A stretch of 60,341 nucleotides of DNA, the filler included, from Hausera hauseri (taxonomy: Eukaryota), in assembly GCA_046269625.1 (NCBI GenBank). It is 10 parts of 10 records of this genome, joined end to end, with 100 filler letters (N's around TTAATTAATTAA, not from the genome) between each part and the next. Parts side by side here need not be neighbours in the genome. Positions count along the whole stretch, not along the records: positions 21,724 to 29,636 come from JBJURY010879848.1; 9 more parts are not named here. The stretch is one strand, 5' to 3'. The notes beneath the pieces were generated by a model, which worked only from the letters and a program-made list of their open reading frames with translations, had not been told where the DNA came from and did no database searches. Shown piece by piece: positions 12,946 to 42,739 of this stretch. Positions within the stretch are counted from its first letter, which is position 1, and the number at the start of each line of letters is the position of its first letter. Position numbers and translations under genes: made by a program.

Positions 12946-12975
12946 CAGATTATAGAATTTGTCTAAAGGGACATC

Positions 12976-14201
12976 ATGTCAAAAGGAAGACAACTAAAGA
13001 AACATTTACCCAGGCACGGACATAAATACTGTGTCTTGTATGACAAGAACAGCGAAGACCTTTTGTATTACGAAAGAAAAGGAAGAAAATTAATAGTCAT
13101 CCCAAAAAGCTTAAGCATCGAAGTTTTAATTGCAGAACACGATTCATATTTGGCAGGACACATGTCCTGGAAGAAAACATTAAAAAAAATATTGAATAAA
13201 TACTTTTGGCCCAGTATCTATATTGATGTAATAAATGGATGAATGCTTCCAAAGTATGTGCCACTAAACAGAAAATGACAAAGAACTACATGGCAGAGCT
13301 AAAACCGATTGCCCTACCGGATAGACCTATGCAAGCCATGTCAATGGATATCATAGGACCGCTTCCTACGACCGACAAAAACAATAAATATATCTTAACT
13401 TGTATTGATCGACTAGCTCATTTTGTCGAGTTGATAGCTTTAATCGATCAAAAGGCAGAAACTTTGGCCAAAGCCGTGGTAAGAAGAATCATTTGCCGAT
13501 ATGGACCAAATATTAGCGGATCGAGGAAGTAACTTTACAAGCAAACTATTTGAGAAGATTACCAAAATATTTAAAATCGAGCGGTTGACTACTACTGCGT
13601 ATCAACCTCAGTCTATTGGAATGGTTGAACAAATGATTGCAACTATCATACGCATACTACCAACAGTAGTAGCTAAGGACCAAAAAGATTGGGACAAATT
13701 CTTAGAAGGAACTCAATTTGCAAATAATACCACCCAACATCCGGCAACAGGATTTACGCCATTTTTCACGATGTATGAACGAGAAGCTGTGTTAACCACA
13801 GACTTAGGAATGACGCCGTACACGGTCAGTCCCGAAGATTTGGAGCAAAACTTTGCAGAAGTATTACAGACGCGACTAAAAAATGTTGATAAATCGCCAA
13901 GGAGTTATCCCAAGAATATCAAGAACAGTTTAAAAGGCAATATGATACGAAAGCGAAACCGCATGATTTAGAACAAGGAAATTGGGTTTACGTACATTAT
14001 CAAATATCCAGAAAAGGTACGTCGTTAAAATTGACTCATGCAGGCAGAGGACTATACGAAGTTACCAGAGTTACGCAAACTACGGTGTACATCAACAAGA
14101 GTGGAAAGGAAGAAGTCGTGACTGTACAAAGAGTTGTTAAGAGGGAGATACTGCCCAATAAACGCTACAATTTACGCCAACGCGAGATAAAAACTTCTTA
14201 A
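12976..14201 (+). pseudogene. pol: Integrase
   Basis: H..AGH..KT..YFWP zinc-binding region, MDIIGPLP, DRGSNF, AYQPQSIGMVE, TGFTPF, and a C-terminal RYNLRQR. Confidence 0.95.
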
Positions 14202-15420
14202 ATAATTGCTAGACCGATATCATAAGTTCAGATAGTTTTAGCACTATCGTTAATTGCTTCTTATATTCCGAGAACACACATTCAATGGTGAGACGATGAA
14301 TCTACGCTAGGAGACGTTTACGGAATACGGAAAAGCGGACTAACGGCGAAAAATGCCATAGCGAAGAAGAAACCAACAGCTGAACTTTTCGCCAGACGCT
14401 GTGTGCGCTGGATTTAAGACTCAAAGACCACATCACGATTTCAGGAAATTTCAGATTGTCCTATACGACGTAACAGTGAAGGAAGTAAAAAGTGTGATTT
14501 TGAACCCGGAGATTATACCCAGTGCTGCGATATAGACTTTGTACATACTTACAATCTTACTTATCGCCTGTACTTACCAGACTCAGCAGAAGACTATATT
14601 GAAATAAACCCCTCACTTCAGTTGGTCATTCCTGCTTGGATCAAACGATTTGAAGTAAAGCCCAATGAAATGCTTCAATCCACCTACCAAAACGTAAGGT
14701 TATTAGCGAGAATATTAAAGAAATCTCAATAAACAGAGATGAACGATGTATTCAAGTGGATGTCGAATGGAATTAACCCATAATCAAGCAATCAGTATTT
14801 TTTGAAGATGTAAACGGAAAAACTCCGAAAATAAAATACTATTTTGTTTATGCCGGTGTGCAAAACCCATGTTGTAAACTACCAGTAAACCAAGAATTCA
14901 AAATAAAGTTTGACTTATATAAAGTACAACCGAATAAACCGAGCAAACATTTGCGAACTTACTACCCGGAGAATAGAATATGGAAGATTTCAAGCGAAAC
15001 GACAACCAAAAAGACAACTACTCGGGTTTGTACCGTTGCGAGAACCGTTACATCGGGCAGTACGCCTAAGGAAAATATACTGGAAAGTATACATACTTGG
15101 AAAGTATACCTATTAAGTATTCGGCGTATCGATCTAAAATCGTGTTCTTTGTAGAAGAAAAATTAAATTACAATATACACATAAGCTGCCGAACAACGTA
15201 TAATGATCAAATTGTAACATTACTTAAAAACACTGACCAGACAGAATGCAATTTGTTAAAACCGCAATCAGATTACATAGTACAAGTATATGCAGATATT
15301 AAACAAAACCAAACACCCCATCATAGCTACGAATTAGAAACCAGTTTTCAGAGACATCAAACCAATGAGACAAGTCGAGACACGTCGACGACTAAATCTC
15401 CTAAGACAATCCCATTATAA
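14202..15420 (+). pseudogene. Post-integrase surface-protein ORF (hydrophobic signal-like stretch, Cys-rich region, FN3-like domain, Thr-rich stalk); no TM in this copy
   Basis: VQIVLALSLIASYIP, several Cys, TTTKKTTT, and LLKPQSDYIVQVYA (FN3-like LKP.T.Y...V.A). Homologous to 28707-29636 (minus). Confidence 0.65.
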
Positions 15421-15464
15421 CGTCACCTCTTCTGACGCAATAGGCTCACCTGATGATGCCGCTC

Positions 15465-15476
15465 AGGGAGGAGAAA
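15465..15476 (+). promoter_or_regulatory. Polypurine tract
   Basis: AGGGAGGAGAAA immediately precedes TGTTG; an identical sequence is at 26055-26066 (minus). Confidence 0.9.
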
Positions 15477-15916
15477 TGTTGGAAAATATCAGCAGTGTCG
15501 TGCCAACCACAAATGTGACAGCTGATCGGAGTTAATAAAAGAAATTTTTGAGCAATAAAATATTATAGAGGAAATAATATATTTTATGTACATAATAAGC
15601 AATGGTATGAGAGGATTTAATTGTATATAAATACAATAAATGAAAGTACAAAAGTTTGTATTTGCGACAAAGGAAATAAACAGAATAATAAACACCACCG
15701 GTAGAATAGCGCGAATATATATAAGCGGGAGGAAGATTAAAAAGAATCAGAAAAATCTGACGACAGCAGCCAGAGATTCAGAAGAATTAACTCTTAAAGA
15801 CTATTCTATTGTGATCTGACCGACTTCGTGAATTCTTTGAAAAGTCGTATCGTGTAGTCAGTTTCTTGGTAATCGTTTTATTTTAATAAAGGTTATGATC
15901 ATGTCTCACAGCAACA
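15477..15916 (+). repeat. 3' LTR of copy A (440 bp)
   Basis: Starts TGTTG after the PPT and ends CAACA; TATATATAA at 15716 and AATAAA at 15885. Confidence 0.85.
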
Positions 15917-18743: not shown

Positions 18744-19462
18744 GCCAACGAACAGACAAAAGAAGCCACGCTTAAGGCTAAGACGGAACAGTGTGTAGGA
18801 CAAATTATGGGAGTCCGAGGTGCTGCAATGTATTTTGCATATTTACAAACGGATGAAGATAAGGAGCAATACGATAAGAATTTAAGCCACTAAGTGAAAT
18901 AAAAACTAATGTTCCAAGACAGAAACGCCCAGTCGGCAGGCCCAAGAAGACGCGAGAAGGGTTTGACTATAACGAAGAATTGATTATAGAATTGAGACAG
19001 ATATCGATACCTACTTTCAACACAGACAATCAAGAATTAAGCGAATTAATGAATAATTTAATACGTATTGTAAATTATCCAAGCCTCCGAGGCGATACAT
19101 TAGATGATAAAGAAAAAGCGATATTCGATGCAGCAAGGAGGATGAGAATTTCACGTTTAAATTATCGAAAAGTAACTTAACCGATGAATCAGTGATCGAA
19201 AAGATCATGGTGGAAAACACCATGGAGGAATTTAGAAAAGTATTACCATACTTGTTTGTTAAAATAAACCCTAATAGAGAGAATAAAATTAATATGGCTA
19301 AATCTTACACAAAGAGCGGCGAGAAAACTACCCTGCGAAGTAAATTGGTCGAGGTTATTCGAAAAGGAAGAAGACAGACGGACCGGTAATAGTAATAGAC
19401 TTGAAGATATACTACGTAATTTGGCAACGACGGATAATTGTAACCGGAAAAACGAATCCAAT

Positions 19463-21350
19463 TGGTTAATCAGCCTACTCACCTTGATGATGCCAATAAA
19501 GCATATAGGTGCGGTTACCGTGTACGACTGCGATAAGTTTAAATTAGGACAGAAATATTTCTTAATGTACTTAGATGTATGTGAGGATGCCAGGCCGCAT
19601 AAACTAGAAACGAGAGAGAAAAGCTACTTCCTAGATAAACAACAAGAATTGATATTGTTGGACGGAATGGAATGCATGTTGAGACGATCTCGTTGCATCT
19701 TTCACTGTGGATTAATGCGCGGCCATTTTTTAATAATCAAACCAACAACCCCTCCGATTCCGATGAACTTGAAACGCCAGCATTGCAAACAGGCTAAGGA
19801 ACCCGGACAACTAAAATGGGATAGCATGGAACTAGAGATGCAACCAGGAAAGATAATTAGGGCATACAAAGTAGTGGTTGGAAGGCTAGACATGCATAAT
19901 GGTCATTGTAATGGAGCAAAATACGACACCGGAAAAGTACTAGAAGCTAACGTGATGGTGGTAGATTTTTATAAATCGGAGATGCGAGTGCAAAAGGTGA
20001 TGTTCCACAGCGTCACCAAGCTATGTACAGAAAATCAAAAGTGTCATTTAAAAGACGGCACGTGTGCTTTTAGAAGTTCTGTTATAATATGGGAAACTCC
20101 CTCTGGAAGAAACTGTAATTTTATCAAAATTAAGGAATTGATATTTAACGAAACTACCAGAAGCGATATGTAGACAAATCCAACATCAACTGAAGTCACG
20201 CGAGGGCACTGCAGAACACTCTACACCTACTATATTGATCTCCGACCAGCATGGACTAAAATTTATTAAGAAAGAAATAATGTCTGGTTGCGAAGTGGTG
20301 ATGTTCACCACCAAATATGAAGCATTTTTCGTCGCAAAAACGAAAATAAATGCGAAAACTTACAAGCTAGAAACGCAGGACATTCGAGTTCAGGATTACC
20401 TAAAAAACCAAGACGATTACTTTTATTACAAGGGACAAGTCGGAATAACCGAATCATATCACAAAATAATAACGAATGATTGTAAATTGGATACGGAAAT
20501 CATAAGGATAAAACTGGCCCTTATCTATGCTAACCCTGAGTTAGCCTCTCCAATAATTTCTATGAGAGAAGGAATTTTCAATCGAGTTACCTGTGAAGTC
20601 ATATTGACTTATGAATGTGAGAAAAGAGACGTACTAATCAACGTTGAAGAAAAACGTTACATACAGGAACTCCACGTTATTTACCAGAATACTCCAAAAT
20701 TAACCACGCCGCTTACTAGAGTGTTATTAAACAATGCAATTGAACCAGCAATCCTTAAATATTGTAAAGCAAGTTTAGAAAGACCAATGTTTAAACGAAA
20801 CGAAAGAGATTGGGTAAGTTTGCCTAACGGAGATATTACTGCCGCTCTAAACAAATTATAAGGAAAAAATCTCGCGAAAGGAATTACGGACGACAAGTTT
20901 CAAAACATCTCTTCAAAGGGCATATATAGGCCTAAGGAAATCGAAGCCTTCGGACAATTTCTCGCTTTTTCGCGACAACGAATGCACGAATTAAATCGAG
21001 CCATGGCATCCGTAGTGGATGATACTCGATATCAAGCTAAATGGAAATCATTGCTGGGTGTAAATCATTACCAACCAGTAACCATAGAAATACTCTACAA
21101 GATTTGGGGAAGAATTTTATTTTATGGACAAGCCGATTTTGGATTCTTAGCAATATATTTCTTAATCCAAATGATTAAAGCTGTATTCCAATCAGTAATA
21201 AGTGGTTATGAAATATTTACATTGACCGGATTTTCATGTAAAATACTGACTGCAATCATAACGCCTTTTCGAAAGTTTTTGAAAGCATACGAAAAAAATA
21301 GATGGAAATCAAACGTAGAACGTCATTTTGGTTATCATAATCGTAAACGA
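19463..21350 (+). pseudogene. env: Chuvirus-type envelope glycoprotein, copy B
   Basis: ORFs 19421, 20235 and 20982 carry the same Cys pattern (VYDC, FHCGLMRGH, GHCNG, CHLKDGTC) and TM region as copy A. Confidence 0.85.
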
Positions 21351-21723
21351 AAAGGAAAACCTTTGTTCTTGTACAAGCGGAAATTCACAAATCTAATATG
21401 CGAAGAAATGCTTCAGACGATGACGAGCCTAAGGGAGGAGAAGTACTTCCAAGAACAAACAGGCATAAGACGTATTCCGTCAGTAAAGAACCATTGCCTA
21501 TGCTATCCCCTACTGTGCCAGTCTATAAAGAGTGCGACAAACAATCAATGACCTTATATCAGACAGAAATTTATAAAAGGATAATTAGTTTAGAATACCC
21601 CTACGAAGGGAAGAAGCGTTATGNNNNNNNNNNNNNNNNNNNNNNNNNNNNNNNNNNNNNNNNNNNNTTAATTAATTAANNNNNNNNNNNNNNNNNNNNN
21701 NNNNNNNNNNNNNNNNNNNNNNN

Positions 21724-21904
21724 TCAATAAAATGAGGCCTAATAAGATGGTTATTGAGCAAGCCCGACGACATGTTTGCAGAAAATTGATGGTGATGGTT
21801 AACGATCTGGGTATGGGCTCATGTACTCCGGTGCACGAGCACGTCCACAACGATAGACAAAAACCAAATATACGAGCATATTCTGCATTAGTAAACTGCG
21901 GCAT
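21724..21904 (-). mobile_element. Degenerate N-terminus of a Tc1/mariner-superfamily transposase (DUF4817-like HTH)
   Basis: MPQFTNAEYA..FGFC then, after a frameshift, GRARAPEYMSPYPDR, which resembles the FTNAEYAD..YGFC.GNAR.A..EY..RYP.R consensus. Confidence 0.5.
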
Positions 21905-22685
21905 AATGGCTAACAGCAACAGCAACAGCAACACCACAGCACAAGAATTATCTGTATAATTCGTCAATCACAACTCATGTCAATTAAATATTGATCAAAT
22001 TAATTCAAACAGTTTAACGATCGACAGTAGGCAGCATATTGCTTTGTGGATGTAAACTACAACAATTATAGTAACAACATATTGATATTTGTCTGTGATG
22101 GATCAACTGCAACGAGCTATTCTATTTCTGCTTTATTAATTTTGCCATACACCACAGAAATCTCTTCTGATCATCTGTCTTACCTGCAATAAAAATGCCA
22201 GTGTAAAAGTTTTACCTTACCGACAGAAAATCAATTCTCATACGATACATTCGCATTGATGATGCAACAAAATTCATACAAGTTGATGTCGTACGTTACG
22301 TTTCAATGCTTTTCCAATTTCAATCTCTGCGACCGATGACTATTCCTATTCATGAAAAAGCAACTACCAAAGCAACTCCTTCAATTCTGCAGAAGGAGAC
22401 TGAAAAGCTGCATTGCACATGTGCAGCAGCATACCGCCTTTTATCGATTTCTCCACGAACTTGAAGCATTACAGGAACATTTACGTGCAATTATCCGCAT
22501 TGGTGGCCAGTATGTTACAGAATAACTTCTGTACAATTTTATTCAATTAGACTTATTTTTCTCCTATCACAGTTTGATGGTTTTTATTAAACGTGATGTA
22601 GAAGTAACTCTAACCGATTGATGTAGTTGATGTAGCAATTTTTATCGAATATTCGAATAAATCATCGACTGAACGGTCATTTTAG

Positions 22686-23551
22686 TTTCCTATTCTGGAT
22701 GGGCGATCTGAATTTCCGCATTGATGACATAAGCAAAGAAGAAGTTGAACGACTGGTACAAGATAAACGATATGATGAAATATACGCACACGATCAATTG
22801 AAGAAAGCAACGAAAGATCACAGCATCTTCAAAGATTTCCAGGAAGGGGAATTGACATTTCCACCGACATTTAAATACGATGACAATTGCGATGTTTACG
22901 ATACAAGGTAAATGACCGACAATTTGATTCTGTGCATTTCCTTGCAGCAAAAAGAGACGGAAACCTGCGTGGACAGATCGAATATTGTATTTGGGTCACA
23001 ACGACGACACGTTATTGAAACCAGAAATCAAATTACTCAAATACTATTGTGTACAGAATGAACGTGGATCTGATCATCGACCAGTTTGTGCGGAATTTCG
23101 AGTTTCATTCAAATTACTCGAATTATCATCATTACCAATCGAATTCGATAAAACGAAAGGAGGTTGTAACGAATTCATTAATTGGTCCCCCCATTGATGA
23201 TATTCAGATTGGACAGGACTACACGATGCTGTTGCACGTTATCGTTGTATAACTCCAATTATTGATGGCGACGAAGATCTCACCAATAGGAAGGCACTGA
23301 GTATATTCAAACCTGATCGATGGGATTGGATCGGTTTATTGCCAGAGAAATGGTGTTTGTTGTCAGAGGATCTCATAACATACGTATATGTGCCGACAAC
23401 GCATTCAGCAAATCTGCATTCAATGGTCGATACGGAATTCTCTAAGAAATATTTGACAAATGTGCCCAAACATGGCGGCCTTCAACTTGTGTATTTTAGT
23501 AAGAGGAAAAATTGCATTCAAGGATATTCGAGCATATTTCATTCGTTATAA
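22686..23551 (+). CDS. 3' exons of an inositol polyphosphate 5-phosphatase with a C-terminal SKICH domain (INPP5K/INPP5J-like). Exons 22686-22907, 22948-23162, 23208-23551
   Basis: FWMGDLNFRI, FPPTFKY, spliced YDTSKKRRKPAWTDRILY, SDHRPV, and SKICH-like WDWIGL. GT-AG introns of 40 nt (22908-22947) and 45 nt (23163-23207) restore the frame. Confidence 0.9.
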
Positions 23552-24532
23552 TTCTGTGGATGGGGTGGACTGGACTGGACTGGACTGGAGTAAAGTAGAA
23601 TGGCACATTGTGTGTTAGAATTGATTTCTAATATTTATACTCTATGCTAATTTACTATTATATTTCATATTTAATAAGATATTCGAATTTTTTTTCATTT
23701 CCCTTTGTTAAAATTTAATTGAAAATACGATGGATGGATGGGTGGGTGGGTGGATAGCGGTCAGTAGTATAGAAATGCCGGTCCTCGATCAGCCCTTACC
23801 CCCACCACAAGGATTTTGTACGATGCATCCCGGAGGCTGGAGAAGTATGGGAAAATGTGGATGTTAAAGGGAAATGATGTATGTCACATAGAAATGATGA
23901 GACGCGAAGGCTGCATTGAATGGTGAAGGAATTAGACCGATCGGATGAAAGGCAGCTTCAATGGGAGATGGAGAAAAGTGATCCAGAACCGGTATTTTTA
24001 TACTACCACGAAGTAAACGTTGAATGACCAACCAAATGAATAGCCAAACGGAACCAAAATGGACGATGCATGGAAGGCGATACAGACTCCAATGTGCATG
24101 TGTGCGTGTGTGTGTGCACTGATGATGGATTCCAGTATCGAGATCAGTATCAAATGAAAGAGTTCGACGTGGGTTATTCGTCAAAGTCATTCGAATTGAA
24201 ACCAAGCTTGTCCGGCCGGACAAAGTCGGGAAAACCCAAAAACCGAATAAATCGTTGGAAAGAAAATCATCAAAACCGACCGAAACCGGTTTCAATCGAC
24301 GTGCAGACGGTTTCTGATTTGGATTATGCGGGACGGACAATTTCGACACGTTTCCATTTACGTACGGCAATGAAAAACGGAAAGTGTTATATATTGGGGT
24401 GGCCCTTAACAATCTCCCACTGTATAACAAAATTTATTCTCGAAATTATTTGGCTCACGCAGGTAAGGCCTAACGTTCTCGTTTAGACAGTATTTGTGCC
24501 TTATTTGTTTAGATTTAAACAACTGAAATGCA

Positions 24533-25423
24533 TGTCCATGTTTCAAGGCATGTACGACAATATTTATGTCGACATTCGTTGTCGTCCAATTTAACGTATC
24601 CTTGCCAAAGGCTTTCTATACAGACAGGGCAGATATCTTCATCTTCGTTTGTGTTTTCATCGTCAAGTTCTACCTTGGGAATACTCTTAATTTGTTCAAA
24701 CACAAGACCATCATGATCGTAGTATAGGTATCCATGAACTTCCTTTTGCTGAATGTTAATCGAGTTCTTTCTCGAGTCATAGTCTACTGGAACTAACGTC
24801 CAGTCTATAACAGTCTCTGTGTCGAGGTCAGGAATTTTACCTTCCTTTTGATATTCCCCGTGTTGTTTCTTTACCATCGATTGGACTTGGGCATCCACAG
24901 GAATTGACAGTTTTCTTGTTCTCTTTCATTTAAATATTCGGGCTAAGTACTGTCCTATGTTTAGATTTTCCCACCCATATGCACCTTCTGGGACATCGCG
25001 TATTCCTGCGTTTTTCATATAGAACACTGCTTCATTCAGTTTTTGACGACTGCAATATTCTGCGGTAATTAATAGTTTCCGATAGTCCTTGATTGTCGAA
25101 TAGTGAATGTTTTTCTTGTGATCTCTTTTTCTTGAGTGCGTTTACTCCGCTGAATATCTGGATAAATTCATTTTCCGACTTCCTTCTTGGGGCTTGTTTT
25201 CTGGTTTTTCTTTCAACATTCCCTGATTTGGTTATATCCATTACGTTTCGGTTTCTGTAATTTCGATATCAGTTTGGGAATTTTCCTCTTGGTTCTTTTT
25301 GGTTTCTCTTCTCTTGGGTGACTGTTTTGCTTCGGGCTATTTTATTTCCTTTACTGACTTCCTTTCTCCTTTGCCTTCTTCACGGTTTCTTTTTTAAATA
25401 GATAGTCATAATGTGATAATGAA
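24533..25423 (-). mobile_element. Inserted fragment of the element's RING ORF, flanked by 18-bp direct repeats
   Basis: Homologous to ~26327-27212 (CPVC...CRHKYCRTC). TTAAACAACTGAAATGCA occurs at 24515-24532 and 25424-25441. Confidence 0.8.
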
Positions 25424-25618
25424 TTAAACAACTGAAATGCAAGTACTCTCTTGCGGTCCTGTGCAATCAATTTAATCAAATTCTGACTCTTAACTAGTTT
25501 AAGTTAGAGATTTTAGTTCCTAGGGTAGTCAAATTACCCTTAAGGGGAAAAGATAAACTATAAGTAATTTAGATACAAAAAATTTATTTAAATGAAAATC
25601 AGTCGTACTTAGTACGGA

Positions 25619-26054
25619 TGTAGCACTCGAAATATTTGATGCTGCGATTTTGGTTTTATTGTTTAATTCAACACTGAGCTTCATAAATTCAACTGAATCG
25701 ACTGAATCGCTTTGCGATTTTAAAACTGTCTCCACTAGTTTCAACTCGCAACGACAACTAGTTTTCTCTCTAACCGATTTTAAGTCTATCTATATATATG
25801 GTGAAATGACACGTGCATGCTGATTAATATTTTCTTTGGACTAATTTCAGATTGTTTTTTGTTTTCAACAGTTTTCCAATAATTTATTTTCGTAAGTTCG
25901 ACAAATACTCCGGAAATTATTAAAAATACGGCAAATTTTCCTGATTATTGTTTTCTAATTATACAGAAAATTTTTAAATCCATATAAATATAGATAATGC
26001 TAAAATAACATACAATTCTATACACTTTTAATTGATGTGTACAATTTTGCAACA
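25619..26054 (-). repeat. 3' LTR of copy D (~436 bp)
   Basis: On the minus strand it starts TGTTG directly after the PPT, has a TATA near 25790-25798 and AATAAA at 25655-25660, and ends GCTACA (copy A ends GCAACA). Length is nearly identical to copy A. The distal end is less certain than the proximal end. Confidence 0.7.
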
Positions 26055-26066
26055 TTTCTCCTCCCT
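26055..26066 (-). promoter_or_regulatory. Polypurine tract
   Basis: AGGGAGGAGAAA on the minus strand, identical to copy A. Confidence 0.9.
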
Positions 26067-26124
26067 GAGCTGCATCATCGCATGTGCCTATTGCGTCAGG
26101 AGTGGTGACGCCCATTTAGTGTCA

Positions 26125-28597
26125 TTACAGTAGGTCCAGTATACGCCGGAGACTACTGTCATCGAATGGGTCAGCAGGGAACCTTATTTCATCCACTTCT
26201 AATTGGTAATTAGTGCTGGGTTGGATTTGAATTTGGACTAGTCGATTACACTCGCCATTTGAGAAATATTTTAATCCGCTTGCCTCAGCCCGACATACTG
26301 GGGACGTGGTTTTCCCGTTTTCTAGGGTCCATGTTTCTAGGCAAGTACGACAGTACTTATGCCGGCATTCCCTGTTATCCATTTTAACGTATCCTTGCCA
26401 AATATTTTCTTTACAAACTGGGCAGATATCTTCGTCTTCGTTAGTATTTTCATCATCGAGGTCTATTTAGGGAATAATTCTAATTCGTTCAAATGCTAGT
26501 CCGTCATGATCACAATATAGGTAACCATGAAGTTCTTTTTGCTGAATGTTAATCGAGCTTTTCCGAAGATCATAGTTTACCAGGACCAACGTCCAATCTA
26601 TAACGGTTTCTTTATCCAGATCGGGAATTTTGCCTTCTCTCTGGTATGCCTGGTATTGCTTTTTCAACATTAATTTGATCTGGGCGTTCACGGGAATTGA
26701 CAGTTTGCCTGTTCTCTTTGATTTGAATACTGGGACTAAATATTGTCTAATTTTCGGGTTCCCCCAAACGTATTCACCATCTGGGGTATTACGCATTCCG
26801 GCGTTCTTCACATCGAATACTGCTTCCTTCAATTTCTAGTGGCTGCAGTATTCCGCTGTAATTAGTAGTTTTGGGTAATCCTTGGTTGTTGAATAGTGAA
26901 TATTTTCATCGGATCTCTTTCTTAAGTACGTTCACTCCGGAAAATACTAGTATAGAATCGGTTGCTGACTTTCTTCTTGGTGCATGGGTGCTATGTTTTC
27001 TTTTGAGCTGTTCGAACTGAGTTATATCCACCTCATTTCGGGATTCTTTGATAATTTGAAGATTTTCTTCTATTTTCTTCTTTTTCTTCTAAATTTTTAC
27101 TCCTTTCAGAACATTTTTCCCCTCAGGCAGCTTTGTCTCCTTCACTGATTTCCTTCCTCCCTTGTCTTCTTTACGATTTCTCTTCTTAAATAGATAATCA
27201 TACAGTGATAGTTTTCTCTTATTCATGGGCACTGTGGTTTCGGCTTCTTCTTCATTGGTGTTGCTGACTTTTTTCCGATACCCTTGCTAAATTTCAGGTA
27301 TCTTAAATATCGTTTGTGGTTCTACATACGTTGTTCTAGCCTTGGAGCTGGGGCCGTGGCTAGTGCTAGGTCTATCATCCATCTTTGCTGGAGTAGTAGT
27401 TGGTCCTGAGCTGGCTACTTGTATTGTTATTTTGTAGTTGGCTCGTTCTGTAGATTCGACAGTTCTAGAAGGAGAACGTGGTCCGAAGTACCTTCTGTGT
27501 CTAGCGCTCAGCTTTTCTGGAGCTTCTCAAGTTCTGGCTTGCATTGTCGGGAACCTATTCATGGTCCCATTTTAGTCCTGCATATATGTCGCGTTGATAT
27601 TGTAAACGCTGACTAGTTGTCAGCAATCAGCTTATTCTTACGTGTTTCCCGTTCATTGCTTTGAGCATTAACTTAAATTGTCTTTCAACGGTCGGTAGTA
27701 GATAACCATTTCTTGATTTAAGGGTTTGTACCATTTGCTCCATTATAACAGAGTGGGTTACTATCTCTCGCTTTCCTGCTACATGCGTGATTGGTAGTTC
27801 CAATGTTTCCATGATCCTTTCCACTTGATACCCGGCGATGATACATCCATATAATCAGTGGGTCAATTCTTCTCTGACCAGTTCGATATCCTTTCCATGG
27901 GCTAACTGTTCCTTTTCTAATCCAGTACCTTTTGAGTAAGTTTCTCTTACTCTCTTTCTCGAACTGATTATTTTCGGGTGAATTTCCGTTCCTCCTATCT
28001 CTCGAATGAACACTTCTATTGTAATATCGTTTCCGTCATATCCTTCTCCATAATTCACAGACATGATTCTGGAGTTCCGAGCATCCTGTACGAATCTGAA
28101 GGAGTGCAGATATTTTTCTCGACCTTTTTCTGTAGGTTCTTGTTTAAATTGTAAGGGCGGTAATCAACTTAACTGGCAATGCGGCAACTCTGAACTCTAG
28201 TTCACAGTTATAGTGATGGAAGTCGCCACTGTTCATCAAGAAGGTGCTGTAGCTGTGTTGTAGCCCTTGCGAGGAATCCCAAGCTTGGTCCTTCAGCCTG
28301 TAATAGATTCCTCCGTGTGCTACGTGAATAAATATGTTCTGATGATAGACACGTTCATATTGGATTAATTGTTGCAAGGCACACGCTCACGCATCTCATG
28401 GCATACAGACGTACTGTCCTATTCTCTTGTGTAGTTCCTTTAACATTATTGGGAATTTCACGAGTATGCTTGTATTCTACGAATGTTTTTCCTTGTAATT
28501 AGCTGTTAATTTGTCGGAATGTCGATTTGGATTGGAGAATTTACACTGTCGCACATTTCTGTAAGAAGTCGTGGATACTATGTCGACTTGTTTCCAT
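26125..28597 (-). pseudogene. Element accessory ORF ending in a C3HC4 RING finger (putative E3 ligase)
   Basis: EDEDICPVCKENIWQGYVKMDNRECRHKYCRTCLETWTLENGKTT(S)PVCR. Upstream fragments 26467, 27627, 27855 and 28144 lie on the same strand. The 5' boundary is inferred from a Kozak-like GCAGCCATGG. Confidence 0.7.
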
Positions 28598-28706
28598 GGC
28601 TGCTTGAGTACTTACCAATCTGAAAAATAAATGATAAGGGCTTATTCTCTGTTTGATAATAGAATAACCCGATCTGTAATTGTCAGGTTATTTTATCATA
28701 CATATA

Positions 28707-29636
28707 CTATTGGGGTTCCAATACCCTTAATTCTCTCTCTATGACATTAGAACGCTTACTATGGCAATTTTTGGCAACTGATCGAAAAGTCGCTATGAAA
28801 ATTATTAGCACGAACGTTGACAAACTTGCGATCATTATGATTTATAAAGTCGTTAATCCTTGGGGTTTTACAGAAACAATTTCTGTTGTCATGTCGAGTT
28901 CTGTGTCTTTGGTCGAGTGTGGTTTTGCCTGAATCTCATTTAAGGTATATAGTGCGAAAGTTTGACTCTGTTTGTCTTTTGCGTTTATTTGTATATATCC
29001 AGATTTTGGCTTTAATAAGTCACATTCAGTCCGATAAGTATTTTTCAATATGATTACTTCTTTATGATTATACATTGTACGGCAATTTATTTCAACGTCA
29101 TAGGTGAGCTTTTCTTCAACGGAAAACACTATTTTACACTGCTGTATCAAATATTTAACCGAAATCTTAACTAATTTCTTTTAGGCATTTTCCTTACCAT
29201 AGTGAGCCTAACAGTGGTGATCACTTGAGTGGTCGGTTTCTTCGTCGTTATATCGACTGCAATTTTCCAGACTCTACTGTCCGGATGATATCTTCCTAAA
29301 TAGGTAATCGATTTATTTATTTGAATTTTGTAGAGGTCCAACTGAAATTTGTACTCAGCCTTCCGGTATTCTACAATATTGATCTGGTCTCGCGTTTCCG
29401 ATGCTACAATAATTCGGAGACGGACTTGACTTATTTATTTTGATTAATCGAACTGAAATCTCCTGGTCGTTTGACAATCTTCCTTTCGTATTTATTTGGA
29501 TGCATTTGTCTTTCTTATCTTCCGAAATACCAATTATGTTTTCATCCAACACCCATTTTATCGGATCTGTTGATTGTACTATGTCGGTGAAATCTGTTAT
29601 ATTAATCCGTTCTCTAGTGGGTATCACTAATTTTAT
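28707..29636 (-). pseudogene. Post-integrase surface protein, copy D, with FN3-like domain, Thr-rich stalk, TM helix and short tail
   Basis: KIVFSVEEKLTY..CRTMYN..LKNT..TECDLLKP matches 15097-15420. It is followed in frame, past one stop, by IIMIASLSTFVLIIFIATF-RSVAK. Confidence 0.7.
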
Positions 29637-29736
29637 NNNNNNNNNNNNNNNNNNNNNNNNNNNNNNNNNNNNNNNNNNNNTTAATTAATTAANNNNNNNN
29701 NNNNNNNNNNNNNNNNNNNNNNNNNNNNNNNNNNNN

Positions 29737-29978
29737 TGAAAAATGCTTCGTAATCGTCTCAGCATGCATTCGATTCCGTCTAGCGATATCAATTCTTGCT
29801 GCTGATACAGAAAGTAATTTTTCTCTTTTGTCTCCAACTTGTGTGGTCTAGCATCCTCGTATGCTTCCAGATCCATTAAGGAATATCTTTGTTCTAGCTT
29901 AAACTTATCGCAGTCGTAGACGATTACAGCACCTATGTGCTTTATTAGCACCATCAAGGTGAGTAAGCTAATTAGCCA
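29737..29978 (-). pseudogene. env: N-terminus of the chuvirus-type glycoprotein, copy C
   Basis: WLISLLTLMVLIKHIGAVIVYDCDKFKLEQRYSLMDLE. Confidence 0.85.
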
Positions 29979-32900
29979 ACTCGATTCATTTCTTCGGTAT
30001 CCAACGTCCACCGTCGACAAATTACGTAACATATCATCGAGTTTATTATTGTTTCGTTTGTCTTCTTCGTTGTCAAATAGTCTTGACCAAATTTACTTCG
30101 CAGGGCAATCTTCTTGCTGCTTTTCGTGCTAAACTTATAGCTCTATTGATTTCATTCTCTCGATTAGGATTTATTTTGATGGTTAAGTATAGTAATACTT
30201 TCCTCAATTTCTCATTGGTTTTCTCTACCATTATCTTTTCCATTACCGACTCGTCGGTTAAGTTGCGTTTTTGGCTGCATCGAAAATTATCTTTTCTTTA
30301 TCGTCTAATGCATCACCTTGAAGGCTTGAATAGTTTACAATTCGTATCAGATTCTTCATTGGCTCATTTAATTCTTCATTATCTGTGCTAAAAGTCGGGA
30401 TTGACATTTGTCGCAATTCTCTAATCAATTCTCCATTGTAGTCTACTTCTTCTCGTGTTTTCTTGGGCCTACCTACTGGACGTTTCGGCTTTTGGCCTTT
30501 AGCTGTTATTTCACTCAGTGGTATTAAATTTATATCATATTGCTCCTTATTTTCATCCGTTTGCAAATACTCGAAATACATTGCAGCATCTCGGACTCCC
30601 ATAATTTGTCTTACATATTGCTCTGCCTTGGCCTTACGCGTAGCTTCCTCTCTTGTTTGTTCGTTAGCTATTACTGCAACTATCCGGTTCGTTTCGTTGG
30701 GAATAATCCCGACATCTGTTAGTTGTTCTAGGTCGTCGAGTATTCTACCTCTGAAGTAAAATTTGTAGTTCAACTTGTTTGTTCTGCCGTTGTTTATCAG
30801 CCATTCTCTTATATCTCTTAGATAAGAATATGTAGTTAACTCGCATTCCTTTTTGTCCATCCATTCGGATGATACTATTACTTTTATTGTCGTTTCAGGT
30901 TTAGCCTTTAAGATTTTAGCGTATTTCTTAATTAAAAGTTTCGGCACCGTAATATAAATAAATAAAAGTTAGTGTCGGAATAAGTTGCCTTAATTTACTT
31001 TCAGTGATGTTTACGTTAATTAGTTCGATTAGATCTTTTTCAGTTAGCGCTGAATCCAGGAGCATCTCCACATTAAATCGTCTGTCCTGCGGACATGTTT
31101 CTATCTCGTTTAATTGTACTGGAGTCATGGGCTTTTCGGTCAGTATTGCGTCGAAGTATGCATCCCATTCTGGCTCGTTCCCGACATCTGGATGTCCAGC
31201 GCCTACTAAGGCTACATTCGTACTCTGCACATTTTCTCGGATTTCTCTCAACCTAGACTGTATTTCTTTCATCTGCGAAGTTCGGAAACCTAATCCGTTT
31301 CCGCATGCGTACTGAATCATTTTTAGTAATTCACCGAATTCGTTAGGGTCGATGAGTCCCCTTTGGTGATAATCTGTTAATTCGATAATTACATCTTTTT
31401 GCAATCTTTGTACGAATTCTCGCCTATTTTTGACTTATGATTCCGTAAAAGCATATTTGTTCCGGTAAATTTCGAATTCTTTTGTTAGTTCGTCTAGCCT
31501 CGTTGCTCTTTGCTTCGTTTTGATGCACGTTTCCTCGGCTTGTCGTAATTTCGGCATTATTTGCCTCATCCTCTCCTCATTAATCTCTGTCATTTCTACA
31601 TTTCGTTTATGATTTTTGAGTCGGGATCTATCGCGTCTGACAGTTGCTTTACGAACGTAGCTTTCTGAAAACTAACATGTTGGTCATCTTTTATTTTTAT
31701 CAATTCGGTATGGAAGTTTTGATCTGATCCGGCCATCCATTCTTGAGGTTTATGCAAAAATTTTATCGTGTCCGTTAAAGTGATTCGGTGTTGCGGGAAA
31801 ATATTTAGTGTCTCGATATCTTGGACAGAAATCTGGTCAATGGGTTTATCGCTTAAATACTGAACCCCTTCTAATCAGATATTTCTCAATCGTGGATAAA
31901 AATTACAAGTCATATTTCGCTTTTCGGTAAAACTCGTCTCTTCGATCATTTCATAGATCTCTTCCAGTATCGTTGCTTCTTGTTTCTTCTTCATAAAATT
32001 TAGTCGTCGTAATGCTTCGAATTTCGTTCGGATATCTATTTCCGCTAGTATTGTATCTAGCTTACGTGCGCTTTCTTCTAACTGCTTTTTTACAGAAGGC
32101 TCATTTTCAGGGAATTCCTTCTTACGGCTCTCCACTAATTTGCTTAATCGCATTACTAATTCGGACCATTCCGACAGTTGATTTGCCATTATTGGCTTGG
32201 CCAATATAGCCTTATCTAGCATCTTGTATGCATCTTTTAACTCATCGTCCGGTCCTCTTAGGAAATCCATAATCCGGCCGACATAACTAAACTCTTCCTT
32301 GTACTCGTCCAACTCTACGATACGAGCTTTTATTACATATTGAGTCTCATCGTGATTTGGGGATATGATTCGATTCCTCAAGCTATAAATCTGTGCTCGC
32401 TTTTCATTTTCTGTCTTAACTCAATTTTCTAGGTTTGTATATTGTTTGGACGTAGCAAATGCGATTTTTACCATTTCCGTCAAGGGAGGAATATCTATCG
32501 GGTCTATACCCAATATTTCTAAATCGATATTACTTCGGTGGTTAACCGGTTTTTTCCTAAGCCGATTAATCATTGCGTGACGAATTTCATCCATCATACG
32601 TTCTATATTCCGGACTACTCTCTTTAGTTTTGGATCCGTTTCTAAGGAAGACAATAGCGTTTGAGCCTCAGCGACTTTTACGTCGACACTATCTTCACTT
32701 TTGCTCCATCCTTCCGAAAATTCTACCCCGCTTTTGATCCAAGATTCTAATTCATACTTCCATTTTAACAGCGTTTCAGGTGACACCTCTTCTGGTTGTC
32801 TCACGTCGAGCTTCCCTCCACTATATAGTTTCAAACTTTTATATAATCTCTCCGCATACTGCTGTTCCTTTCCCGATATGTCTACTTGTTCGCTAATTTG

Positions 32901-33728
32901 CTTAAGCCTCTCTAAATTTCGCTGCAGTATTTCTGGATTGTGGGATCTAATTCTCATTTTCTTTAATTCATTGGCGTTTTTCCACGAACGTCAAACTTTC
33001 CACTTCTTTGGATCGAAATCATCAGTAATCTCTGTTTCTTCTTCACTAATGGGAAGTGGGCAAATCTCGTTAACTTCGTTACTTGACTCTGCAGACTCCG
33101 TTACCTCGACAGGGGTAAGTGGCCCCATCTCTGGTGTATTCAAACTATGTTCCGTGTCGCCTCCTACGACGACCTTCGCGTTTTCCGTTTCTTCCCTTTT
33201 CTCTCTGGTTATTTTGGAGCATGAACGACTTCTACGTTTCATCTTAAGGGAAGGGCTGCGGCCTCTATTTTTCGTAATTTTAAGTATCAACGGTTCCATA
33301 AATTCTTTTTCCGCTGCATCATCATCAATAGACTTATCTACTTTTTCAACTGTTAACTCAGGCTCTGTGTCTAAGTCGACTGCCGTCGATGTGCCTGGTT
33401 TATCAGATGTTTTATTACTTGTCGGAACACTCTTTTTCCGTGTCATATCAATACGTTTAGGTTTTATTGCGTGTTCATATTCCGTTTCTGGTTCGGCTAG
33501 GCCGTGATATACTTCTGGTAGTCTCAACTTATCTCCGTATTCTTTTCTAGCCATTAAAATTCGCAAGTTAGCAGTATTCGGCTGAGCATCTAAGAATCTT
33601 CGTAAGTTTTGTATGTCGATGATAATACCTGTGTCTCCACGAACACCATATTTTGCTTCTAAATTTTCATTGATTCTAATCATATTAGTCTTATTTGGCT
33701 CAGTAAATGAAAGGCTACGCCGATTTGG
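29979..33728 (-). pseudogene. ~1,250-codon unknown region between the Gag zinc knuckle and the glycoprotein: charged/helical segments, ubiquitin-like domain 30669-30887, AT-hook KRPVGRPKK
   Basis: ORFs 32991, 32421, 31875, 30928 and 30258 are colinear and separated by single stops or frameshifts, several of which are open in copy B. Confidence 0.8.
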
Positions 33729-34694
33729 ACGACCTTGAAATATGTCCTTCTTTACCGCAAGTGAAACAGACTAAATTTCCATTTCTGCCGATTCTGTCGA
33801 CCGTCTTCGTTTACCGGTGACTTAGATCTATTTATACTTTTATTATACTGGTTTGACAAACTTTGCGCATTATCTGCATTTCGTCGATTATCATTATTTC
33901 GGTTATCGCCGTTTTGATTCGAGTAGTTCGAGCATTTATAATCTTCTCTATTCCTATCCCAGTTTAAATCTGATTTATTCATATTAGTATAATTATTGCC
34001 TCGGCTATATCTATAACTGTTATTATTATTTCGGTTCCCATAATTTTTGTTACCCTTAAATCGTCTGTCATCTCTTCCACGATTGTCATTCCGATTTCTG
34101 TCGATGCGATCACTTCGATCATTATTTCTGTCCTTTCTATCATTATGTCTGGCATATCTGTCGAGTGCCATTTCTAAATCCTGAGCCAACTGTAGAGTTC
34201 CTTCAAAATTTTCGGGCCTAGCCAAAATTAATTGTTTAACCAAATCTCGCGACCAAATACCATGGATTAATTGAGTCGTCATCATGACGTCTAAATCTGG
34301 CGGTGTTGCCTTTTCTGCGGCATCGCGTTCCGCATCTGTTTTAGCTCTAGCTACGTTGGCTATTCGCAGTGTGTTTATGTAACTATTGGCAAGTTTTTTT
34401 AACGCAAATGCAAATTAGGTTACTGATTCACTTTTTGTTGTACTCTATTCTGAAATGCCATAAGCTTTTGCTGAGGCGTTACAGTCGGTAATAATTTATG
34501 ATTTAATGCTCCTACCAGGGAGGACCAAGATTTCTTCTCATAATTAGTACGTTCGCTATACGCGTCAGCAGCTAGATCCTTCAGATATAGTGACAAGCTT
34601 CAGGAGTAAGGCTAGCACCTTCTGCGTGCAATTTATAAGTTCTCAAGAATTCATTAAGCCCGTCTGGGTCGCCATCGTATGCTGGCAGGTTTAG
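33729..34694 (-). pseudogene. gag: Gag (capsid, Asn/Arg-rich linker, CCHC zinc knuckle)
   Basis: LPAYDGDP..LNEFL, LSLYLKDLAADAY, NRVQQK.ESVT.FAFAL..LA (major-homology-region-like), QLIHGI, P.NFEGTLQLA..LE, and the frameshifted knuckle CFTCGKEGHISR at ~33730-33768. Confidence 0.85.
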
Positions 34695-34794: not shown

Positions 34795-35916
34795 TGATCC
34801 CGTACGAGTTTACATAAAATGGCATACATGAAACACTTGTTGTCATCATTAAGGACGTTGATGCATGCCTTCTTATTAGTGATCCAATCATGGATCATAA
34901 TATACCCCGCATGGGAGAGTACTTGTGAACATACACAAGTAATCTCTTGATGGTCCATCCTCTCTTCTTATACTGGCTGTCATTGGCTTTACGGATCAGC
35001 TTCGCATGCTTTTCAAGCCTCAATTCTATACTAGTGGCTTCAAAAATGTGTTTATTTTTAGTCTTGAAGGCTATTTGGAATCTTCGCCATCAACATTGAT
35101 GTATTTAGCCTCAAGTTTCATATTACTCTTAATAACCTTGAACTCAACTATGTTGTCCTGCAGAATTCCTTCTGTTTCTTCCTGTGTGTACTCAAGGAAC
35201 TCCTTGGTGGTTCTTTGACCAGTTGCCTCAATGACATATTTGCGGATTTTTCTCTTTAATGCTGCAGCATCAACTGGCCACTGCCTTTGACTCTTTGATG
35301 GAGCCGGTACGCCTAATGCGCCTGATGTGCGTCTTAGTCCTGCATCTGGCTGCGGTACTGCACGCTGTGCTTCTGCAACTGGCTTATGTTATTTAAAGAT
35401 GGTCTTCTTTGACTTTGATGTGAAGTCAGTCAAATGATGTTTGTCATCTTCATAAAACTGTATGTATTCTCCATCATACACAGTCTCACATCCTGGGCAT
35501 ATATAATAGAGGATCTTTTTGAATTTGTGTCCATAATAGCTCCTCATGGCATTGTGACAATTCTGAGGGTTATGTATTGTAGATGTGCAATACATATATG
35601 AACTGCATTTTAGATTTTCCTTAAGCATGACAGTCATTATTGGCATATTGGTATTGAATATTTGTTTTTTCGACTTGGTGAAGGAAACTAGGTGCTGTTT
35701 ATGGGCAATGTAAAAATCTACATAATTGGTTTGGAACACCACCTCACATTTATGGCATATACAATACTGAACCCTGTTGTATAGAGGGCTAAAGTATTTC
35801 ACCATAATACTGTGGCAATTTTCAGGCTCATGGATTTGAGCCAGGCATTCACTGTAAAGTTTGCACATCTAAAAATCAAACAATTATTTGAGGAACACAA
35901 TTAGAAAATTTACCAT
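34795..35916 (-). pseudogene. N-terminal part of a Polinton-type pPolB (second copy)
   Basis: DWITNKKACINVLNDDNKCFMYAIL; close homology to 48697-49826; tandem Cys/His domain. Confidence 0.85.
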
Positions 35917-36197
35917 TCGTTGAAGCGATTTTGGAAATAATGAAAAAATATATCATATCACCATGTACTACCCAGTTTATTTATTGGTTTTAATGCACTT
36001 TTGATTTAATGCATAAAATAAATAAAATACAGGGCGGCACCAAACTCTGTTAGGTTTTCATATATAAGGATTCGAATGACGTCATTAGATTCTTCGAATA
36101 ATGCATGCTTGACCGAAAATTCGAGTTCGAATAGCTAAATATTCGAGTATATAGATGTAAGGACACTGGATCAGACTCCTTCCCCCGGGAAGGTAAG

Positions 36198-39960: not shown

Positions 39961-40621
39961 TTGACCTTTCAAAACCCATTGTTTATCTCAACTGTGGTTG
40001 ACCCGATACACCCACTTCTCGTCCGAAATCACAATCCGCTTCCAAAAGCCGATCATTCAATGGATTGTTGAGCAGCTGACGGCAAATTTCAACTCGTTTG
40101 GCAGTTTTAGCTTGGTTAAGTTCGTGCGGATGAAGCTGCTTCAAATGGTTCCAGACAGTTACGTTTGAGACACCAAGTTCTGCTGCCAAATCGCGCGTGC
40201 TTGACGAAGGTTCAATGCCCAATTCGGCTTGAAAATCTCCATCATCACATTTAGTCATACGACCTGGGCGTGGCTGATCTTCCAATGTTTCGTCACCGTT
40301 TCTGAACTTGGCAAACCATTCCTTAGCTATAGGTTGGCCATTTTTTCTCTTTCCATAGATTTCGTTGATTTTTGTTTCGGTGCTTTCTGACGCATTCGTG
40401 TCCAATTTCCATTGAAAACGTAATAATAACCGTTTTTGTTCCCCAGTCAACTCCATTCTAAACAAATATAGACGAATAATATAGTTTATCAATAATAATA
40501 GTATATAAAAATACGCGCAAGAAAACGGGCTTTCAAATGAAGCCAAAACCATAAAATGGCTTGAAAATAAAAAATTTAGATCCATGAGTTTGCAAAGGTC
40601 TGAAACTTTTTAACAACCTAA
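39961..40621 (-). mobile_element. Mariner DNA transposon, 5' part (transposase ATG at 40456, frameshifted)
   Basis: TA + TTAGGTTGTTAAAAAG.. TIR at 40621; WFAKFRNGDETLEDQPRPGR, PHEL, and a frameshifted D-EKWV. Confidence 0.92.
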
Positions 40622-40625
40622 TATA

Positions 40626-42426
40626 TCAGGGGATGTAGTACTGTAGAAAGCAATTTCTGGTATTAGTGACACACAGACAGCAATTACATTTAATGCATTT
40701 CATTCGTACGTATTGCCCACAAAATTTGCAGCCTTGCTTTAATTCACAATAATCAGGATAATGTCCGACGTTGTCATAGCGAGGTGTTTCATTCACCAGT
40801 TGCACACGATGTGACTTCTTGGGCGGATTGCTTGCGATGTCATTTTCCAACTGATTCGCCGATTCTGTAGTCGATGTCGCACTTTTCAACTGCTGACCCT
40901 AGCGATTCTCTCCAAGACCGGATGGAAATTTGTTATTCATGCATAATGACTGGCTTATTTTGCATGTGTATTGCAAGAGATCCAACATTTCATTAGCATT
41001 CATATCATGCTGGCAATGACCCTTGTATAGTAGACAACCATTAACTACTGCTACATTCATTGCCCAGAAAAATATTCTCCTATAGCATTTCGTGCTCTTG
41101 TGATCGATCCTGTAAAAGTCCATTAACATATCGAAGAGATCCACGACGTCCATGTTTGCGTTGTATTCTCGAACAATAGTTGAACATGATACCTGGAGAA
41201 ATTTTTTTCCTTTCGATTTCATCGGTATAGTTGTCACCTGTACAGTTTGTCGTCGAAAGCTGAATAGCTGAACTCTCCATCCAACGGACAATGCTTAGGC
41301 CATTCGCTGAGTCGTAGCGTGCATCAAGAGATCCTCTTCCTTTCCTCTTTAGAATTTTCTCTAACGTTATTACGCAGTTCCACAGTCGGTTAGAACGAAT
41401 TGTCCTAATTGACCAAATTATCTGTAGTTCGAAACATGTAAACTAGTTATCGAAATAAACCTTGAAATTTTGATGTTTGGGTAGCGTTTGACTTAACTTC
41501 AGTACGAAGTCTCCAAACTGAAATCCGCAACTTTCTACCACCTCATGACGTCCCGTCGTATCGTATGAAATCATAGGTTAGACCAGTTACGCCACATCTT
41601 GCTAGAAATTTAAACCCGACTTTTTTGTTTTTTTGGTATATATTGACGTAGGCTGTTCTTACCTTTGTACGGAATAAATTGTTCGTCTAAAGACATTTTT
41701 GGTTTTGGTTCAGATAGTAATGGACAAATTTTATGGTAAAGGTCAGTGTGGATCATCGCGGTTGTAAATAGTGGTATTATTATCATTGAAGTGATAAAAT
41801 CTGTGCAGTTCTCTGAACTTATTTCTGGACATGACATCGGCGATGGGTGCGTAACGAAAATCTTTGCTCCAGTACATATAATATCTTGGCATTTGCACCA
41901 GTCCCATTCTCAGCAAAATGTCGATGTGCTGTTCAATTTCTGCCTTGCTTGTTACGAAGGAAGAACCTTCTTGTGCAGCATGTAAATTACTTTGTTCGAC
42001 CATCAGTGAAATGATCCCACCTATGCATTACTTCTTGAAGTATTCAAGTAGCTATGGAGAGTATGTTGAAGGTTCTAAGGAAGCAGTGTTGTAAGTAACT
42101 TTGTGGTTTGGTCGTTGCATTCTCTTCCATACGAACTTACATTTAGACGTAATACTAACTGGTTTATTTTTATTTCAACAGTAATGCAACAGTTGCTATT
42201 ATCCATTTCAATGAAGTCGAAGGTAATTATACGCAATATTGTATGACATCAAATATATCGCCATATCATACTGCCTGCATGCACACAGATATATTATGTC
42301 TGAAATTATCACTAAATGACATGCATACACTTCGAGATATGCATGAAATGTATAACCTTCGTCAATAGTACTACGAAACACCACTTTTTGCAATGACGCC
42401 AAATGGAGTCGTTGATCGCGAAAGAG
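40626..42426 (-). mobile_element. piggyBac transposon with decayed transposase
   Basis: TTAA at 42427-42430 followed by CTCTTT terminus; SLDEQFIPYKGKNSLRQYIPKK, YFDN, YNANMDVVDLFD, and C-terminal CKFC..CIKCNCCLC..NCF..Y. Confidence 0.92.
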
Positions 42427-42739
42427 TTAAATAATTATTTTTATCAATATTTCTATTAAATAAGAAGTACCCGTTCATGTGAATTTCCCACCGAAAATGT
42501 TTGTATTTTTCGAAATATTGAATATTTAATATTAAAAAATAATTTTAATCTACTCGATGCAAAGTATTTTTTCAAGGTTTTGTCGATATTTTAAGCAAAC
42601 AATGGCTCATTTTCATAAAATTTAAAAATTATGGGTTGATTATTTAATATCACAAATTAAAAAAATATTAAAGAAAAAATTGTCAAAATTATTTGTTTCA
42701 AAATCCATATTAAAACATTCATTAAAAACTTTTACAACT

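Follow-up and report, generated by a model that had tools for sequence, protein, structure and literature searches.

A broken 3′ accessory gene with a putative pseudo-nuclease–RING product in an env-bearing Ty3/Gypsy element of Hausera hauseri

The giant Gypsy elements of planarians, Burro/GYPSM1, encode Gag, a ubiquitin/SUMO-like motif and a mononegavirus-like envelope (env) protein, followed by protease, reverse transcriptase, RNase H and integrase (PR-RT-RH-IN), and carry ubiquitin- and apoptosis-related cargo (MATH/TRAF, BIR and an AIR1 'RING Zn-finger' motif) that has been proposed to meddle with host systems (PMC6431247). Burro-type elements are ~30 kb long; the one passage on Burro in PMC13238120 holds nothing relevant here. 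GAG-ENV-POL errantiviruses with an env of the herpes simplex virus (HSV)/gB type have been described in nematodes, bryozoans and flatworms (PMC13524379). On the host side, vertebrate PML is a DEDDh (pseudo-)exonuclease protein that restricts L1 through the ubiquitin–proteasome system (PMC10123124, PMC13659232), and the exonuclease domain of human PML is catalytically dead and binds nucleic acid (PMC13659232). Few counter-defence proteins are known for animal long terminal repeat (LTR) retrotransposons. Here we describe a RING-bearing gene in a 60,341-nt stretch of DNA from Hausera hauseri (GenBank assembly GCA_046269625.1), hereafter the window. We read it tentatively, at a probability of roughly 45%, as a broken accessory gene for a putative pseudo-nuclease–RING E3 ubiquitin ligase, located at the 3′ end of a Ty3/Gypsy element with an env; the ligase would most likely be aimed at host restriction or silencing factors.

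The accessory gene and its predicted product

The RING lies on one contig of the window (contig 4, positions 21724-29636) and, judged by its alignment to a relative termed P0006, is the C-terminal tail of a larger accessory gene, not a lone RING. The gene and its parts are as follows.

26050-28597, minus strand: accessory gene, broken; ~2.5 kb; five colinear tblastn pieces to P0006
28597-28640, minus strand: candidate splice acceptor and ATG; pyrimidine run and CAG ending at 28620, ATG at 28597 in strong Kozak context
28150-28582, minus strand: N-terminal conserved region; P0006 aa 56-202, 42-46% identity
27560-28067, minus strand: putative DEDDh/DnaQ-fold pseudo-exonuclease; acids of ExoI and ExoII missing from both the contig 4 copy and P0006
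26890-27520, minus strand: low-complexity basic linker; tblastn piece aa 432-604, E 4e-5
26425-26889, minus strand: pre-RING domain, ~150 aa, family-specific, conserved
26293-26424, minus strand: C3HC4 RING (PF00097); ligand 7 is Ser in the contig 4 copy

P0006 is an intact natural relative of 870 aa, encoded on one 16,242-nt ENA contig. A HMMER search of 1.84 billion representatives gave 67 matches, among which P0006 alone spanned the whole query (E 1e-61, 51% identity); the best of the others reached E 6.5e-11, and it and those ranked below it were centred on the RING. P0006 is colinear with 28582-26050 through aa 56-118, 137-202, 204-467, 432-604 and 590-870, with frames changing along the way. 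Its C-terminus, QGGEML, is the translation of the polypurine tract (PPT) and the first LTR bases in contig 4 and in copy A, a copy of the element family on contig 2. That a protein ~45% identical ends at the same PPT supports, on independent grounds, the view of the gene as element cargo. Word-index searches found no longer relatives with the pre-RING plus RING piece (755 candidates) or the nuclease piece (653), and a search with P0006 returned only itself among 6,806 candidates; of 159 pattern matches in metagenome_contigs and 5 in viral_contigs, 0 were confirmed as relatives.

The contig 4 copy is dead. At least 4 frameshifts and 9 in-frame stops precede the RING end, and 3 further stops lie at 26127-26116. 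The preliminary description had placed the end of the RING 15 nt before a conserved 3′ block; the feature found there, ~15 nt ahead of the block, is the first stop of the frame (26127-26125), and the RING ends ~180 nt before the block. For comparison we used sibling contigs from one public run, X1 (one study), which perhaps represents the source sample, so that they are not independent of the assembly; on 25900-26560, 513 contigs aligned at 80% likeness, with contig depth not equal to copy number. All sibling figures given here come from this run. Siblings differ from contig 4 at the stop codons before the block at a depth of 55.7 of 55.7 (8 contigs), and at the stop at 26469 at 86.7 of 93.9. 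Because all counted siblings differ there, the stop ahead of the 3′ block probably reflects decay of this copy.

At the other end of the gene, the candidate acceptor and Kozak ATG suggest an env-like spliced message. The acceptor is followed 4 nt on by a GTAAGT donor-like motif, and 28588-28851 is a conserved non-coding stretch with a sibling depth of 18,497, versus 6-10 in a host gene on contig 4.

The RING sits in the minus-strand frame 26466-26128. As first described, it is of C3HC4 type with Ser as ligand 7, and it matches PF00097 at 26424-26293 (E 6.1e-7, 29.6 bits against a cut-off of 21; P0006, 30.8 bits). The Ser leaves the zinc ligand set of the contig 4 copy incomplete; siblings differ from contig 4 at this position at a depth of 2024.5 of 2047.6 (39 contigs), and all eight ligands are present in P0006 (747-791). 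The Arg linchpin of RING ligases is located after the last zinc ligand. Alignment with RLIM shows that an Arg after the last ligand is kept in both P0006 and the contig 4 copy, together with the E2-facing Trp and Pro; an Arg linchpin promotes ubiquitin transfer (PMC12326332). Because P0006 keeps the eight ligands, the Trp, the Pro and the post-ligand Arg, the label of putative E3 ligase is reasonable. In a structural model the RING has a confidence (pLDDT) of 81-87, and residues 147-214 match RING/U-box-type structures only, with a best Z of 6.6, a value common for so small a fold.

Upstream of the RING, the N-terminal region has no Pfam or PDB match. The next region of P0006 (aa 246-331) aligns to DnaQ 8h18 with E 8e-4 in a search with the whole protein and 1.1e-4 with the region alone, and to the PolC exonuclease 2p1j with E 4.7e-4; a profile search of DnaQ-like structures gave E 2.8e-4. 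Atlas ranks RNase_T clusters first for it (0.92, 0.91), and Pfam reports nothing over it. The ExoI Asp, ExoI Glu and ExoII Asp of DnaQ stand opposite non-acidic residues both in P0006 and in the contig 4 copy. With moderate confidence we regard the middle domain as a DEDDh (DnaQ-like) fold minus its catalytic acids, likely a disabled nuclease. A Lys/Arg cluster in the linker, kept in P0006, resembles a nuclear localization signal and may act as one. The pre-RING domain was matched by P0006 only among the 1.84 billion representatives; it has no Atlas match, and its low-confidence model (<50) has no fold match outside the RING. A single-sequence model of the whole of P0006 reached a pLDDT of 31.

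The host element and the gene within its family

The window consists of ten separate contigs joined by nine identical N44-TTAATTAATTAA-N44 linkers (6034-55200), and neighbours across linkers are therefore not linked. Contig 4 begins inside a post-pol membrane-type open reading frame (ORF) and holds no gag, env, pol or ubiquitin-like (UBL) sequence; the 'element' is therefore a composite assembled across contigs, and the 5′ part of its RING-bearing copy extends past the contig end. Contigs 2, 3 and 5 carry pieces of one Ty3/Gypsy family, 72-79% identical. We rejected 29737-34694 as a continuation of the RING-gene contig, since an artificial linker lies between. The parts that bear on the element are the following.

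8196-15487, plus strand: copy A; encodes, in order, a fusion glycoprotein, PR, RT, RNase H, IN and a membrane ORF, with the 3′ block and PPT directly behind; RING gene absent
28740-29636, minus strand: post-pol membrane-type ORF, cut by the contig start; hydrophobic C-terminal segment at ~28847-28791
26055-26110, minus strand: 3′ block, conserved, with the PPT (purine run at 26066-26055); same frame as the accessory ORF
24385-26054, minus strand: 3′ LTR, TGTTG...TAACA; ~760 bp without its insert; far end placed by inference
24533-25423, minus strand: piece of a sibling's accessory gene, truncated; spans linker, pre-RING and RING ligands 1-6; 891 bp
24515-24532, no strand: 18-nt direct repeat, first copy, exact
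25424-25441, no strand: 18-nt direct repeat, second copy, exact
29637-29736, no strand: artificial contig linker; parts the RING-gene contig from the gag/UBL copy at 29737-34694

The backbone is that of a Ty3/Gypsy element, as seen from the PR-RT-RH-IN order at 10095-13532 in copy A (Pfam) and from the PPT at 26066-26055, which abuts a TG-starting LTR from 26054. A Monjiviricetes-type fusion glycoprotein (PF24664, E 2e-9 to 8e-15) is encoded ahead of PR in copy A, and again in 19268-21551; it lies between gag and pol, the arrangement of GAG-ENV-POL errantiviruses. The membrane ORF of contig 4 is distinct from this glycoprotein. It matches copy A at 14687-15279 (tblastx E 8e-43; nucleotide score 161, the highest among shuffles being 46), has a 19-residue hydropathy peak of 2.71 and belongs to no Pfam family. 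The RING had been placed downstream of the element's surface-protein ORF: a membrane-type ORF does lie upstream, but it is not the fusion glycoprotein. The RING gene has the membrane ORF on one side and the PPT/LTR on the other, both of them parts of the element and in the order seen in copy A, so the preliminary description was right to take it as internal to the element and not as a flanking host gene. The copy A membrane ORF (14202-15400, plus strand) has a hydrophobic start, and the contig 4 version a hydrophobic C-terminal segment; the anchor region is missing from copy A and from some sibling contigs (joints 28696-29023 and 28700-28883).

The 3′ block with PPT and LTR head is common to both copies, as had been noted earlier: 67 nt (15421-15487 versus 26110-26044) are 88% identical (E 4e-17), and the PPT-plus-TGT motif occurs at exactly two sites in the whole window, one in each. 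The 8 differences within the block fall 5/1/2 by codon position, with no sign of protein-level constraint. Beyond the LTR head, 19 sibling contigs carry unlike sequence (agreement 0.47). Only a short head (26038-26054, minus strand) is shared, and the 150 nt that follow are close to single-copy. Past the 3′ LTR, on the opposite strand, lie exons at 22300-23170 (plus strand; motifs WMGDLNFR and PAWTDRIL) that we take to resemble inositol polyphosphate 5-phosphatase; this host gene has a near single-copy depth of 6-10.

A second stretch with RING sequence, at 24533-25423, had been read as a diverged version implying that other family members carry the gene. The divergence is real (74% identity to the main copy; PF00097 E 2.5e-4) and other members do carry the gene, but we rejected this stretch as a second family member: its sequence breaks off after ligand 6, and it sits within the LTR, flanked by exact 18-nt direct repeats (no exact 18-mer repeat arose in 200 shuffles). 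Among the joints listed, siblings have insert-free LTRs that pass from 24408 to 25443 (2 contigs) and from 24493 to 25426 (1 contig). The fragment derives from the gene of a distant sibling and was captured by the 3′ LTR through either a template jump or a repair patch.

Comparison of the main copy with this fragment gives a ratio of nonsynonymous to synonymous divergence (dN/dS) of 0.104 (dN 0.13, dS 1.27, 185 codons; bootstrap 0.05-0.18), with 25/27/80 differences by codon position and a pN/pS of 0.20 in the pre-RING part and 0.17 in the RING. Because dN/dS between the two is 0.10, the accessory gene is taken to have been under purifying selection in the family. A set of 29 in-frame sibling differences (40 of 71 rows; 14 synonymous, 13 not, 2 stop-codon) is mixed with decay and carries little weight.

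Co-occurrence of the RING with the PPT, the check that the preliminary description called for, is seen among the listed sibling pieces. A 402-nt record covers 26327-26468 and 26051-26172, linking the RING to the PPT block; a 238-nt record spanning 26050-26284 with 29 differences links the ORF tail to it, and the joints 26112-26296 and 26082-26179 likewise tie the RING or ORF tail to the block. Sibling depth at 80% likeness is 7-22 over the LTR body, 13-27 over the tail behind the RING, 2,315-2,647 and ~520 on the RING ligand stretches, and 42,000-46,000 on the 3′ block. This pattern says that the RING is multicopy and conserved at its ligands; the block-bearing copies that have it are probably a minority, or else its carriers are too diverged to align. 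In copy A, an apparent remnant of the ORF start (15362-15393) looks suggestive, but 56 of 500 shuffles scored as high, and an apparent ORF-tail remnant was equalled by 280 of 500; the difference between the copies is either a deletion in copy A or a gain elsewhere.

The element had also been credited with two ubiquitin-system modules. The second of these is doubtful: the UBL candidate (~30890-30657; PF00240 ubiquitin, E 0.051 on the isolated domain) is statistically weak, has no PDB ubiquitin match and lies on other contigs than the RING. It is plausible by analogy with the ubiquitin/SUMO-like motif that Burro has at the same position. Between gag and this candidate runs a long, largely open, charged helical region (31875-33770, minus strand) with no family match.

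Elsewhere in the window, a decayed protein-primed DNA polymerase B with an endonuclease VII domain occurs at 2299-3957 (plus strand), 46507-49545 (minus strand) and 34797-36146; we take these remnants to be Maverick/Polinton-like. At 42626-44185 (plus strand) lies an animal-type ORF for 6-phosphogluconate dehydrogenase, intact and without interruption; it is closest to mammalian structures and marks the host as an animal. Further, a Mos1-type helix-turn-helix at 39983-40609 (minus strand; PF17906, E 1e-6) is a mariner-like transposase remnant. There is a 31-nt tandem array at 52793-53467, and 55201-60341 is a gappy simple-repeat contig rich in GAA.

Possible functions of the product

In the mechanism that we favour, a spliced subgenomic RNA using the acceptor and Kozak ATG would express the protein, the basic cluster would direct it to the nucleus, the dead DEDDh domain would hold element RNA or complementary DNA (cDNA), and the RING would ubiquitinate proteins gathered at the bound nucleic acid. 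The targets would be host proteins engaged in restricting or silencing the element; these are favoured for a gene that some copies can do without but that has long been selected. The strongest form of this proposal, in which the element has evolved a nucleic-acid-guided ubiquitin ligase with a dead DEDDh targeting arm and a RING effector that destroys host silencing or restriction factors, translated from a spliced subgenomic RNA with its frame running through the PPT into the LTR, is doubtful as a whole. For the pairing of a RING with a pseudo-exonuclease that binds nucleic acid, there is a described counterpart in the PXL of PML-1 (PMC13659232).

The same anatomy would fit equally well an E3 that serves the element's own cycle, binding its RNA or cDNA and ubiquitinating either Gag/Pol or factors of trafficking, so as to set the timing of assembly, budding or uncoating. 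Particle traffic matters to a family that has a second membrane ORF besides its fusion glycoprotein, and the DEDDy ORF3 proteins of rotifer elements have been proposed to process element nucleic acid (PMC6431247). However, absence of the gene from copy A, and perhaps from many copies, points to a dispensable or trans-acting role rather than a core step, and the basic cluster hints at the nucleus; we consider this reading unlikely, if a serious competitor. Less likely again is a RING that works as a structural or protein-binding zinc finger without ligase activity, in a protein that would serve as scaffold or decoy and protect element nucleic acid from host nucleases or sensors. The nuclease domain is already a pseudo-enzyme, and scaffold-type viral RINGs exist, the arenavirus Z protein being one, but the E2-facing Trp and Pro and the post-ligand Arg are kept in both the contig 4 copy and P0006.

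The gene could, finally, have come in as a host retrocopy, or be a non-autonomous element of its own, lodged between the membrane ORF and the PPT and of no benefit to the element, much as scraps of genes fill LTRs in this genome. The LTR does acquire fragments, as the 891-bp insert and the variable sequence behind the LTR head (19 contigs, agreement 0.47) attest, and contig 4 is without pol and copy A without the RING gene. Such a hitch-hiker is nevertheless hard to reconcile with a dN/dS of 0.10 at a dS of ~1.3, with the lack of any host protein match beyond the RING among the 1.84 billion representatives, with a frame that, even in a relative of just ~45% identity, extends over the PPT and LTR head, and with the absence of separate termini among the listed joints; we judge it very improbable.

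Several observations weigh against the favoured reading of a counter-defence E3 ligase. The PPT block is ~18 times deeper than the RING peak, with depth not equal to copy number; in copy A the membrane ORF runs directly into the 3′ block with no RING gene, and many family members may do without it. Links between RING and PPT were drawn from a listing of 8 of 517 sibling pieces plus 3 joints; the sibling comparison that gave the insert-free LTRs listed 8 of 2,031 pieces. We infer autonomy of the RING-bearing element through copy A, contig 4 being without gag, env and pol, and only one intact relative, P0006, was found. The DEDDh matches are modest (E ~1e-4; Atlas 0.92, with 165 shared features against 170 typical of the same family), and the DnaQ alignment stops short of ExoIII (H-x4-D). 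RING domains without ligase activity also exist.

If the counter-defence reading is right, a selected pseudo-nuclease–RING fusion at the env position would be an assayable candidate for an element-encoded E3 ligase, and its substrates would point to host factors that restrain such elements. The PPT-overlapping frame offers a marker for finding relatives without full assemblies.

Comparison with known systems

Ubiquitin-related cargo (Burro) and active DEDD nucleases (rotifer elements) are already in print. We found no description of a RING or DEDDh–RING accessory ORF in an LTR element in the literature searched, with supplements, Repbase, subscription papers and Grohme 2018 outside that scope. 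DNA viruses use RING E3 ligases against host defences, and the preliminary description drew the comparison with herpesvirus ICP0 and poxvirus p28. These two and baculovirus IE2/PE38 share the C3HC4 RING fold and give fold matches that cover the generic RING alone (TM ~0.2, 12-26% identity); no KilA-N or ICP0-specific region was detected, the pre-RING model being of low confidence.

The backbone fits GAG-ENV-POL errantiviruses and is compatible with Burro/GYPSM1. The former share with the present family the gag-env-pol order and a class III-type fusion gene (PF24664), and the main text of the errantivirus paper mentions neither RING, exonuclease nor ubiquitin (PMC13524379). Burro, as described, has its cargo in the ORF1 polyprotein or an upstream ORF, whereas here a separate 3′ ORF ends in a C3HC4 RING; unlike in Burro, this RING is fused to a DEDDh-fold domain in a frame that overlaps the PPT. 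MATH/TRAF, BIR, ankyrin and dUTPase domains were not detected in the 40 stop-free stretches searched, in copies that are decayed and cut by contig ends. The bdelloid Juno and Vesta LTR elements resemble the present family in that some members only carry a DnaQ-like extra 3′ ORF after pol; their DEDDy ORF3, as described, keeps its catalytic residues and has no RING (PMC5408684), whereas the present protein lacks the acids and ends in a fused RING.

PML was not matched in the PDB searches, and we treat it as an analogue, without a claim of homology. It, too, carries a RING. PML is a host restriction factor with an N-terminal RBCC, whereas here the module is on the parasite's side. If the proposed function holds, the gene would be a parasite-side mirror of PML's combination of RING and pseudo-exonuclease, and a kind of LTR-element counter-defence undescribed in the literature searched.

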